This document shows, one piece after another, positions 5,245-7,819 of a stretch of DNA of 9,209 nt (the first letter of the stretch is position 1; each line of letters starts with the position of its first letter). Made by a program: the position numbers and the translations under genes. Source of the DNA: a virus (Duplodnaviria > Heunggongvirae > Uroviricota > Caudoviricetes); the IMG/VR virus record IMGVR_UViG_2923307698_000010; one strand, 5' to 3'. A model generated the notes under the pieces. That model was not told the DNA's origin, did no database searches, and saw only the letters and a program-made list of their open reading frames with translations.

Positions 5245-5607
5245 ATGGCTAGCGAACGCAGTACTGATGTGCAGGCATTTATCGGGGAGCTGGACGGCGG
5301 CGTATTTGAAACCAAAATCGGCGCAGTTCTCAGTGAGGTCGCTTCCGGTGTGATGAACACGAAAACCAAAGGGAAGGTCTCACTCAATCTGGAAATCGAA
5401 CCGTTTGATGAGAACCGTGTGAAAATCAAACACAAACTCTCATATGTTCGCCCAACTAACCGCGGGAAAATTTCCGAAGAAGACACCACCGAAACGCCGA
5501 TGTATGTCAATCGCGGTGGTCGCCTGACTATTCTGCAGGAAGACCAGGGACAATTACTGACTCTTGCCGGTGAACCTGACGGAAAACTCCGCGCAGCAGG
5601 TCGTTAA
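5245..5607 (+). CDS. yfdP: YfdP-like prophage protein (function unknown)
   Basis: 120 aa from ATG 5245 with a GAGGA ribosome-binding site 8 nt upstream; the N-terminal extension of the six-frame ORF (5080-5244) lies in the structured leader and is rejected. Identification rests on length and sequence resembling the remembered E. coli CPS-53 YfdP. Confidence 0.7.
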   Translation: MASERSTDVQAFIGELDGGVFETKIGAVLSEVASGVMNTKTKGKVSLNLEIEPFDENRVKIKHKLSYVRPTNRGKISEEDTTETPMYVNRGGRLTILQEDQGQLLTLAGEPDGKLRAAGR

Positions 5608-5672
5608 TATCGTTCGTAATAAACTGATTATTTATCTCATCACTGAATATCTTTATATAGTGAGGACTTATT

Positions 5673-6497
5673 ATGTCTCAGAACTTAGACGCAACCGCAA
5701 TTAATCAAATCCATGCCCTTATTTCTGCTCAGGGTGTTAATGAAATTATCAGTAAGATTGGTGCCGATGCTGTGGCATTGCCTGAGAATTTCCGCATTCA
5801 TGATCTGGAAAAATTTAATTTAAATCGCTTCCGTTTCCGTGGTGCACTTTCCACTGCCAGCATCGATGATTTTACCCGTTATTCTAAAGATCTTGCAGAT
5901 GAAGGCACCCGCTGCTTTATCGATGCCGATAATATGCGTGCCGTCAGTGTGCTTAACCTGGGTACTATTGATGAGCCAGGTCACGCAGATAACACTGCCA
6001 CTCTCAAACTGAAAAAGACAGCACCGTTCTCTGCTCTGTTGTCTGTTAACGGCGAGCGTAACTCCCAGAAGTCACTGGCAGAATGGATCGAAGACTGGGC
6101 CGACTACCTTGTGGGCTTTGATGCTAATGGTGACGCCATTCAAGCAACAAAAGCGGCTGCGGCAGTCCGTAAAATCACGATTGAAGCAAACCAGACCGCT
6201 GATTTTGAAGATAATGACTTCAGCGGCAAACGCTCCCTGATGGAGTCTGTCGAAGCGAAGACCAAAGACATTATGCCAGTGGCATTTGAATTTAAATGCG
6301 TTCCGTTTGAAGGTCTGAAAGAACGTCCGTTTAAATTACGCCTCAGCATTATCACTGGCGATCGTCCTGTACTGGTTCTGCGCATTATTCAGCTGGAAGC
6401 GGTGCAGGAAGAAATGGCTAACGAATTTCGTGATCTGCTTGTTGAGAAATTCAAAGACAGCAAAGTAGAAACCTTTATTGGTACTTTCACCGCCTGA
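5673..6497 (+). CDS. yfdQ: YfdQ-like protein (DUF2303-type, function unknown)
   Basis: 274-aa ORF with a GAGGA ribosome-binding site 6 nt upstream; length and sequence consistent with the remembered YfdQ. Confidence 0.85.
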
Positions 6498-6509
6498 TTT
6501 CATTACTGC

Positions 6510-6531
6510 AAATGCCCCTGCGGGGGCATTT
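6510..6531 (+). terminator. Hairpin between yfdQ and yfdR (possible attenuator or RNA stability element; weak U-tract)
   Basis: AAATGCCCC-tgcg-GGGGCATTT stem-loop 13 nt after the yfdQ stop; only a short T-run follows, so intrinsic termination is uncertain. Confidence 0.3.
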
Positions 6532-6624
6532 ATGGAAACGTAATTAACTCAATAATCACCGGATGGTGAGGGCTTCCTTTTACCAGAATTCAGCGCGGTG
6601 CAGTGCATATACGTGGAGAACAAA

Positions 6625-7161
6625 ATGTCATTTATTAAAACTTTTTCCGGGAAGCATTTTTATTATGACAAGATAAATAAAGACGACATCGATATTAACG
6701 ATATCGCGGTTTCCCTTTCAAATATCTGTCGCTTTGCCGGTCATCTTTCGCACTTCTACAGCGTCGCCCAACATGCGGTTCTTTGCAGCCAGCTGGTGCC
6801 GCAGGAATTTGCTTTTGAAGCGTTAATGCATGATGCAACAGAAGCGTATTGCCAGGACATTCCCGCACCACTGAAACGCCTTCTTCCTGACTATAAACGG
6901 ATGGAAGAAAAAATAGACGCCGTAATCCGTGAGAAATACGGGTTACCCCCAGTTATGAGTACACCCGTGAAATATGCCGATCTCATCATGCTGGCAACCG
7001 AACGCCGCGATCTCGGGCTTGATGATGGCTCTTTCTGGCCTGTACTGGAAGGCATCCCGGCAACAGAGATGTTCAACGTGATTCCACTGGCACCGGGTCA
7101 TGCCTACGGGATGTTTATGGAACGTTTTAACGATTTATCGGAGTTACGCAAATGCGCATGA
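6625..7161 (+). CDS. yfdR: HD-domain phosphohydrolase (YfdR-like 5'-deoxynucleotidase)
   Basis: 178 aa from ATG 6625 (MSFIKTF…) with a GGAGA ribosome-binding site; the upstream ATG at 6598 lacks one. HD-superfamily motifs are present (…QHAVL…, …LMHDATEAY…, downstream Asp residues). Confidence 0.85.
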   Translation: MSFIKTFSGKHFYYDKINKDDIDINDIAVSLSNICRFAGHLSHFYSVAQHAVLCSQLVPQEFAFEALMHDATEAYCQDIPAPLKRLLPDYKRMEEKIDAVIREKYGLPPVMSTPVKYADLIMLATERRDLGLDDGSFWPVLEGIPATEMFNVIPLAPGHAYGMFMERFNDLSELRKCA

Positions 7162-7514
7162 ATGTTTTCGAAATGGAAGGGTTTCTTCGCGGGAAATGTG
7201 TACCGCGAGATCTGAAAGTGAACGAAACAAATGCTGAGTACCTGTTACGTAAATTCGACGCGCTTGAAGCTAAATGTGCGGCACTGGAAAACAAAATAAT
7301 ACCAGTGTCAGCTGAACTGCCACCAGCAAATGAAAGTGTTCTGTTATTTGATGCTAATGGAGAAGGCTGGCTGATTGGCTGGCGTTCTCTCTGGTACACC
7401 TGGGGACAAAAAGAAACCGGAGAATGGCAGTGGACATTTCAGGTCGGGGACCTTGAAAACGTCAATATCACTCACTGGGCAGTAATGCCAAAAGCACCGG
7501 AGGCTGGAGCATAA
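7152..7514 (+). CDS. yfdS: YfdS-like protein (function unknown)
   Basis: 120-aa ORF overlapping the yfdR stop (alternative ATG at 7158 in an ATGA overlap); translationally coupled. Confidence 0.8.
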   Translation: MRMNVFEMEGFLRGKCVPRDLKVNETNAEYLLRKFDALEAKCAALENKIIPVSAELPPANESVLLFDANGEGWLIGWRSLWYTWGQKETGEWQWTFQVGDLENVNITHWAVMPKAPEAGA

Positions 7515-7819
7515 TGACCACATTTACCAATAAAGAACTGATTAAAGAAATCAAAGAACGAATCAGCAGCCTAGAGGTTCGAGACGATATTGAGCGCCGT
7601 GCTTATGAAATCGCACTCGTATCTCTGGAAGTAGAGCCAGATGAACGCGAAGCCTATGAATTATTCATGGAAAAGCGTTTCGGTGACTTAGTAGATCGTC
7701 GGAGAGCAAAAAACGGCGATAACGAATACATGGCATGGGATATGACTCTCGGTTGGATCGTCTGGCAGCAACGAGCTGGTATCCATTTTTCAACAATGTC
7801 ACAGCAAGAGGTGAAATAA
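7514..7819 (+). CDS. yfdT: YfdT-like protein (function unknown)
   Basis: 101-aa ORF whose start overlaps the yfdS stop (TAATG) and whose stop overlaps the xis start (TAATG). Confidence 0.8.
   Translation: MTTFTNKELIKEIKERISSLEVRDDIERRAYEIALVSLEVEPDEREAYELFMEKRFGDLVDRRRAKNGDNEYMAWDMTLGWIVWQQRAGIHFSTMSQQEVK

Follow-up and report, generated by a model that had tools for sequence, protein, structure and literature searches.

The yfdP–yfdT block of a defective lambdoid prophage at argU of Escherichia coli: a layered early-left segment with a structured RNA leader

What the genes yfdP, yfdQ, yfdR, yfdS and yfdT do for a phage, and whether they act as one unit, is the question raised by the 9,209-nucleotide (nt) stretch of viral DNA presented above (IMG/VR record IMGVR_UViG_2923307698_000010), in which they occupy positions 5245–7819; the full stretch is referred to here as the window. 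The window belongs to a defective lambdoid prophage that occupies the argU (intD, DLP12-type) attachment site in E. coli. On balance, the segment is best read as the distal portion of an early-left operon that the repressor of this prophage would control, and by which host replication would be taken over via DnaA. The cassette itself is ordinary and already known, being a near-copy of named and studied genes of E. coli K-12. An earlier reading of the letters alone (the sequence-only reading) had listed five open reading frames (ORFs) in this segment, and their names, order and coordinates agree with the ORF list for the + strand.

5245–5607, + strand: yfdP, 120 amino acids
5673–6497, + strand: yfdQ, 274 amino acids, DUF2303 family
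6625–7161, + strand: yfdR, 178 amino acids, starting at the ATG used by RefSeq
7152–7514, + strand: yfdS, 120 amino acids
7514–7819, + strand: yfdT, 101 amino acids

The CPS-53 (KpLE1) prophage of K-12 shares all five genes with the window in identical order and at identical lengths, and the gaps and overlaps between them are also those of the window (65 nt, 127 nt, −10 and −1). In E. coli loci with the five-gene arrangement (L083 and L084), the encoded proteins are 98–99% identical to those of the window. Because the layout is shared and the proteins of such loci are this similar, the DnaA/oriC phenotype described for K-12 should apply to the window as well. The two copies differ in their surroundings. 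The window prophage is attached at argU and has intD and a P22-type xis, whereas CPS-53 is attached at argW and has intS and torI; the upstream immunity region and an RNA leader have been kept in the window but lost from CPS-53; and the int gene of the window carries an amber codon.

The position of the block in the prophage is that of the lambdoid early-left genes, as the sequence-only reading had proposed: the genes from yfdP onward are placed between the repressor gene and xis–int, and all of them through int lie on the + strand, as does cI. The features that define this position are as follows.

3370–4044, + strand: cI-like repressor gene
4084–4111, + strand: candidate early-left promoter (pL), TTGACA-16-CATAAT, 11 of 12 sigma-70 positions, the best in the region
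7819–8190, + strand: xis, P22-type excisionase, 123 codons, intact
8046–9209, + strand: intD-type tyrosine integrase gene, with Pfam Phage_integrase matches to both halves

The candidate pL sits directly 3′ of the cI terminator (4056–4075), and two operator-like repeats that fit ATGTACC-N5-GxTACAT (4090–4108 and 4110–4128) overlap it. Since two further copies of this repeat are found in the cI/cro intergenic region (3285–3303 and 3334–3354), control of the candidate pL by the repressor is predicted, and the sequence at 4084–4111 would be the repressor-controlled early-left promoter.

The role of the cassette had been called undefined in the sequence-only reading, a statement that is out of date given the published work on DnaA and oriC (Noguchi & Katayama 2016, PMC4776307). 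In that work yfdQRST was isolated because, in multicopy, it suppressed the over-initiation of an hda mutant, and multicopy yfdQ and yfdR together with either yfdS or yfdT inhibited initiation at oriC in vivo in E. coli K-12. YfdR was found to bind domain I of DnaA in a Phe46-dependent manner and to inhibit moderately both DiaA–DnaA and DnaB–DnaA binding, and oriC replication in vitro was inhibited by extracts oversupplied with YfdQRST (PMC4776307). Applied to the prophage, these results suggest a course of events in which loss of the repressor would allow transcription from the promoter at about 4084–4111 and, with it, early expression of the cassette proteins. YfdR would then compete with DiaA and DnaB at Phe46 of DnaA domain I and, in combination with YfdQ and either YfdS or YfdT, would block initiation at oriC, both steps being drawn from K-12 under overexpression. 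The presumed benefit to the phage would be that host replication is halted and replication proteins are released for its own use.

Lambda P and SirA of B. subtilis are likewise phage or developmental proteins that bind DnaA and block host initiation, and neither has a sequence relationship to YfdR. SirA, like YfdR, uses the domain I residue equivalent to Phe46 (discussed in PMC4776307). Lambda P, in contrast, targets domain III of DnaA and is itself a helicase loader, whereas YfdR is an HD hydrolase that needs partner genes. As the catalytic site of YfdR is intact in the sequence (see below), this protein probably also hydrolyses nucleotides, as a second and conserved activity. YfdP, YfdQ, YfdS and YfdT had been described as proteins of unknown function, and they are still without an assigned biochemical one.

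Co-occurrence of the genes was examined in 80 loci, one genome per species, that were fetched with a YfdQ profile and then searched with the window proteins, and in a second set of 80 E. coli viral contigs with near-identical YfdQ. The counts obtained are given below.

yfdP: 79/79 species loci with upstream DNA; 80/80 viral contigs
yfdR: 59/80 species loci; 77/80 viral contigs
yfdS: 6/80 species loci; 58/80 viral contigs
yfdT: 4/80 species loci; 43/80 viral contigs
window-type xis: 2/80 species loci; 26/80 viral contigs

Wherever upstream DNA was available, the gene for YfdP immediately preceded that for YfdQ in the same orientation, even at identities as low as 34%; loci with low identity came from Marinobacter, Photobacterium, Hahella and Kistimonas. 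The eight loci whose YfdQ is most distant (≤46% identity) all lack YfdR. Because the counts in the viral contigs fall just after yfdR, a mosaic boundary can be placed at this point. The five genes had been taken to form one cassette, a view that did not survive the co-occurrence check, in which only yfdP and yfdQ, often with yfdR, travel together. The block is made up of three layers, namely the leader with the obligate yfdP–yfdQ pair, yfdR as a frequent add-on, and a shuffled set of yfdS and yfdT, and what looks like a five-gene cassette is better read as three independent layers. The triad of yfdP, yfdQ and the HD hydrolase gene is likewise found between repressor and int in the lambdoid phages ST64B, LLS, phiNP, SfV, mEp460, cdtI and PhiR49_1, among which the yfdS/yfdT content varies, and the trio was described in 2025 as "fairly common" in lambdoid early-left operons (PMC12315714). 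These phages were deposited as complete genomes, whereas in the window copy the replication gene is interrupted by an insertion sequence (IS) and int is broken.

The two genes of the third layer are mosaic, Ea22-style accessory genes. The halves of YfdS match different PHROGs and consist of an N-terminal module and a C-terminal DUF551 (PF04448; residues 50–117), the latter a marginal match at 22.1 bits against a cutoff of 22.0; DUF551 is known from Ea22 variants, where it has been described as a portable domain at the C-terminus (PMC10834534). YfdT belongs to phrog_660, has 50 N-terminal residues in common with other PHROGs and is without a Pfam domain. A domain common to YfdS and YfdT, by which it might be understood why either suffices for the replication phenotype, was considered and rejected, as the two proteins have no significant similarity (E = 0.32).

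Several points weigh against a takeover of host replication via DnaA as the role of the block. The closest-linked partner of yfdQ, yfdP, was dispensable for the replication phenotype, and the phenotype was seen only with multicopy genes; deletion of yfdQRST had no effect, and the authors allow that an artefact may be involved (PMC4776307). YfdR-like HD proteins are encoded in 333 phage records whose hosts are as different as Bacillus, Caulobacter and Rhizobium, a distribution that favours a host-independent enzymatic role over DnaA binding. The yfdP–yfdQ pair is also found without yfdR, including beside genes for single-stranded DNA-binding protein (SSB) and exonuclease, and its primary role may therefore not involve DnaA. 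Lastly, expression of the block from the candidate pL can only be presumed, because a terminator-like hairpin (5060–5107) intervenes and no N-type gene was recognised; the ORF list holds no plausible N-like ORF between the candidate pL and yfdP, this being a result of the ORF list only, with no homology search made for N. The hairpin is the end of the following element.

4894–5109, + strand: STnc100-like structured element, Rfam RF02076, full length, 39 bits, E = 8e-6

STnc100 is a family of prophage small RNAs, and the element in the window scores below the gathering score of RF02076 (39 versus 47 bits). Its terminal hairpin, in which 5060–5070 is paired with 5090–5101, is followed by U6 at 5102–5107 and resembles an intrinsic terminator.

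Downstream of this element, nucleotide-level conservation upstream of yfdP was seen in many genera, and the conserved region corresponds to a structured RNA.

about 5102–5252 (~145 nt), + strand: structured RNA leader of yfdP, defined by a 24-species alignment and a covariance model

The leader is composed of a long closing stem, a three-way junction whose GGG/CUCAUAA/CCC loop is invariant, a hairpin that varies, and a further, small one immediately 5′ of the Shine-Dalgarno sequence and ATG. The consensus from the 24-species alignment comprises 37 base pairs, with 97.7% of the cells paired. Changes on both sides were counted at 15 of these pairs, compared with 6.1 ± 1.4 in shuffled alignments (0/500) and at most 8 when the partners were slid. 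The covariance model found the leader directly 5′ of yfdP in Yersinia, Serratia, Rahnella, Proteus, Morganella and Xenorhabdus, which were not part of the seed, and it also matches PhiR49_1. No match was obtained in K-12 CPS-53 (13.8 bits), HK022, ArgO145 or the Vibrio and Xanthomonas phages, and an Rfam scan found no family that covers the yfdP leader. An anticodon-arm-like motif had brought up the possibility of a tRNA, which was set aside as ARAGORN called none in the window or in 15 related loci.

The put RNA of HK022 is comparable with the yfdP leader: in each case a lambdoid phage without N has a structured RNA where an early operon begins. However, put consists of two adjacent stem-loops in ~73 nt, whereas the yfdP leader has a long closing stem and a three-way junction, and identity of the two was rejected because the covariance model has no meaningful match in the HK022 immunity region. 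A put-like mechanism was suggested earlier for the related phage LLS. The leader may serve as a site or target of RNase III, as an RNA for antitermination, or in the control or switching of translation, and it could explain how the early-left operon is controlled in lambdoid phages that lack N. A tentative conclusion, short of probable but worth serious consideration, is that the leader, which is conserved with covariation in many genera of Enterobacterales, is a cis-regulatory element, not described before, of early-left operons in lambdoid phages without N, or that YfdP–YfdQ make up a replication or recombination module with an uncharacterised fold and a large assembly, or both.

Two side observations concern the same RNA. 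The core of the leader (model positions 21–87, 37 bits) recurs in the late-operon leader of Klebsiella phage GZ7 (L166, 1509–1574), just 3′ of the gene for antiterminator Q and of two tRNA genes. The closing stem is immediately preceded in Mixta tenebrionis by a palindrome-containing, promoter-like sequence, which suggests that the leader forms the 5′ end of the early transcript.

The yfdP–yfdQ pair is the sole obligate unit of the cassette and is widespread. YfdQ matches DUF2303 (PF10065) with 309.7 bits against a cutoff of 26.6, over profile positions 2–269 of 269, and its family is represented in 184 phage records and falls into about 1,775 clusters at 50% identity. The best 150 representatives are uniform in length, and none of them carries a domain fusion. 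All 120 homologues of YfdP among the matches listed carry PF27127, one of them being 98% identical to YfdP. That the published DnaA phenotype did without yfdP suggests that what the two proteins actually do together is still to be discovered. One proposal, held to be somewhat unlikely, is that YfdP–YfdQ is a DnaA-independent accessory to replication or recombination that acts as a large oligomer on phage DNA or on host nucleases, with YfdR, YfdS and YfdT as mere neighbours. Besides the obligate pairing in all 79 loci, it can draw on the places in which the pair is found. The pair is also found outside the lambdoid phages, and profile comparison confirmed a YfdP homologue immediately before YfdQ in Vibrio phage 34E29.1 (E = 2e-21), Xanthomonas phage Olaya (E = 6e-20) and the Stx phage ArgO145 (E = 3e-46). 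The pair is placed inside recombination/SSB modules in all three: 34E29.1 has the order Erf, YqaJ exonuclease, DnaQ-like exonuclease, YfdP, YfdQ, SSB; ArgO145 has Gam, RecT, Exo, SSB, YfdP, YfdQ; and in Olaya YfdP and YfdQ are upstream, with the recombinase, exonuclease and SSB further downstream. An SSB gene stands directly after yfdQ in loci of Proteus (Proteus columbae), Kistimonas and Hahella, and 26 of the 80 species loci have a DnaQ-like (DEDD) exonuclease gene downstream of yfdQ in the same orientation.

A large assembly is suggested by PDB entry 9o7m, titled "YfdQ Protein", which matches YfdQ with E = 1e-44 and contains 36 chains of one sequence, 95–99% identical to Xanthomonas/Xylella phage proteins. 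In addition, production of YfdQ triggered plaques of a resident phage (preprint 10.1101/413146). Against the proposal, the pair accompanies complete recombination modules and so is no replacement for one, as is also argued in PMC12315714, where the trio is judged unlikely to be a hidden recombination system. YfdQ is moreover acidic (pI 5.0), nothing links 9o7m to DNA, and SSB genes occur within the 6-kb flanks of just 4 of the 80 prophage loci, so that SSB linkage was rejected as a general rule. The AlphaFold models of the two proteins, which are of moderate quality (pLDDT 75 for YfdQ and 68 for YfdP), gave no informative fold match in the PDB, and a sequence search of the PDB found no relative of YfdP (alone or as a profile), YfdS or YfdT. 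Whether 9o7m also contains the YfdP-like or the 470-amino-acid neighbour from the Xanthomonas phage was checked, and neither of these matches any PDB chain. No publication on 9o7m was found, and the Grad-seq paper holds no data on YfdQ complexes. Gene neighbourhoods do no more than suggest a link of the pair to DNA metabolism.

YfdR is a hydrolase of the HD-domain type and carries the annotation 5′-deoxynucleotidase, in line with the sequence-only reading. It matches phrog_318 ("deoxyribonucleoside 5′ monophosphate phosphatase") with E = 5e-110, it bears the RefSeq name 5′-deoxynucleotidase, and its closest solved relative is Atu1052 (PDB 2gz4; E = 3.7e-14), with the HD motif aligned. The superfamily motif H...HD...E...D is present as H50, H69, D70, E73 and D119, and among 53 distinct YfdR orthologues H69, D70, E73 and D119 are invariant and H50 is found in 52; the invariance of the catalytic residues indicates that the active site is under selection. 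YfbR, the HD-domain 5′-deoxynucleotidase of E. coli, shares the HD fold and this motif with YfdR, but among solved structures YfdR is closest to Atu1052 and not to YfbR. YfdR aligns over residues 41–104 with the Pfam YfbR-like model PF12917, at a score of 24.3 that is just under the cutoff of 25.9, and it reaches 19.9 bits with the NCBIfam YfbR equivalog model NF003009, for which the cutoff is 122. Judged by these scores, YfdR is a relative of YfbR and not its equivalog.

The invariant catalytic residues, the phrog_318 match and the RefSeq name also speak for YfdR as mainly an enzyme that hydrolyses deoxynucleoside monophosphates or related nucleotides early in infection, its binding to DnaA being a side effect of overexpression, and the 333 phage records from unrelated hosts point the same way, as a DnaA-specific role would not transfer among such hosts. 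Phosphatase activity of YfdR against CMP has been reported in the literature. However, YfdR misses both YfbR cutoffs. Its affinity for nucleotides is far below that of YfbR, and its function "remains elusive" (cited in PMC4776307). Deletion of yfdR did not raise the CMP yield significantly in an engineered strain, unlike that of the other three genes tested. Nor would a mainly enzymatic role explain why yfdQ and yfdS or yfdT are needed in the only known phenotype. Such a role is accordingly regarded as unlikely. The manipulation of nucleotide pools put forward in the sequence-only reading is possible for YfdR in view of its invariant catalytic residues and its wide spread among phages, but it is not the best-supported role.

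A defence role in the lysogen had been offered as a second possibility, and it lacks support: none of YfdP, YfdQ, YfdR, YfdS, YfdT, Xis or the minus-strand ORF at 4259–4774 matched a PADLOC model at E ≤ 0.01, and the genes have a lytic-early position, 3′ of the operator-flanked promoter. That the cassette is expressed in the lysogen to protect the host, as a defence or stress-tolerance function, is therefore very improbable, even though sensitivity to H2O2 rises upon deletion of yfdQ or yfdS and that to methyl methanesulfonate upon deletion of yfdQ (cited in PMC4776307), and yfdPQ mRNA is detectable in growing K-12, with SrsR bound upstream (PMC9181523). The normal upstream region, leader included, is gone from K-12, and yfdPQ expression there is for this reason probably not the native state; furthermore, YfdP and YfdQ occur in Vibrio and Xanthomonas phages in which no integrase or repressor is annotated within the ~9-kb stretches examined.

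The description of the genes as tightly coupled applies to three junctions: yfdR and yfdS are joined by a 10-nt overlap (ATGCGCATGA), and the yfdS/yfdT and yfdT/xis junctions both consist of TAATG. It does not apply to the step from yfdP to yfdQ, across a gap of 65 nt, or to that from yfdQ to yfdR, across a gap of 127 nt that contains a hairpin.

6511–6530, + strand: GC-rich hairpin of 8 bp in the yfdQ–yfdR gap, right after the yfdQ stop codon, followed by UUUAUGG, a weak U tail

The hairpin may act as a partial terminator or mark the boundary of a module, and its place right after yfdQ agrees with yfdPQ being listed as a transcription unit of its own in K-12 (PMC9181523). As a whole, the 127-nt gap showed no unusual structure (z = −0.98). 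A terminator scan of the + strand found no consensus terminator in either the yfdP–yfdQ or the yfdQ–yfdR gap; the same scan placed weak terminator-like sites within genes, at 6273–6285, 7366–7383 and 7762–7779. Co-transcription of the cassette with xis and int is plausible.

An operon ending in xis and int had also been proposed, and this stands for xis, which is intact and of full length, but not for int, which is broken by an amber codon. The xis product matches the excisionase family phrog_2907 over positions 2–117 of 117 (E = 5e-45) and also HTH_17. The overlap of 145 nt between xis and int is normal for the family, the same arrangement being found at 98% identity in deposited complete phage genomes. 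The amber codon of intD is located at 8748–8750 (W235*), and its sole cause is a G-to-A change at 8749 relative to E. coli strain STEC435, in which intD is intact and adjoins tRNA-Arg.

Comparison with STEC435 showed that positions 1257–9209 of the window differ from this strain by one base over 7,953 nt. The STEC435 annotation lists, in order, ymfL, ymfT (cro-like), ymfK (cI-like), a hypothetical gene on the opposite strand and yfdP, followed by a YfdQ-family gene, yfdR ("5′-deoxynucleotidase"), a "phage protein", yfdT, a partial HTH gene, intD and tRNA-Arg. The remaining part of the window is occupied by an insertion element that truncates the O-like replication gene on the minus strand.

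1–1256: IS3-family insertion sequence, with a frameshifting pseudoknot (Rfam ALIL, 119 bits)

PhiR49_1, a complete phage genome from ECOR13, has the gene order O, cro, cI, yfdP-Q-R-S-T, int, which is the order of the window. Because of this identity, the window can be regarded as a decayed copy of the PhiR49_1 phage type, PhiR49_1 being an essentially intact version of the same prophage.

One further ORF lies between cI and yfdP.

4259–4774, − strand: ORF of 171 amino acids, phrog_1244, with its own terminator at 4220–4201

This ORF may be expressed in the lysogen. The N-terminal half of its product appears coiled-coil-like (a weak TMF_TATA_bd match), and the protein contains two CxxC pairs.

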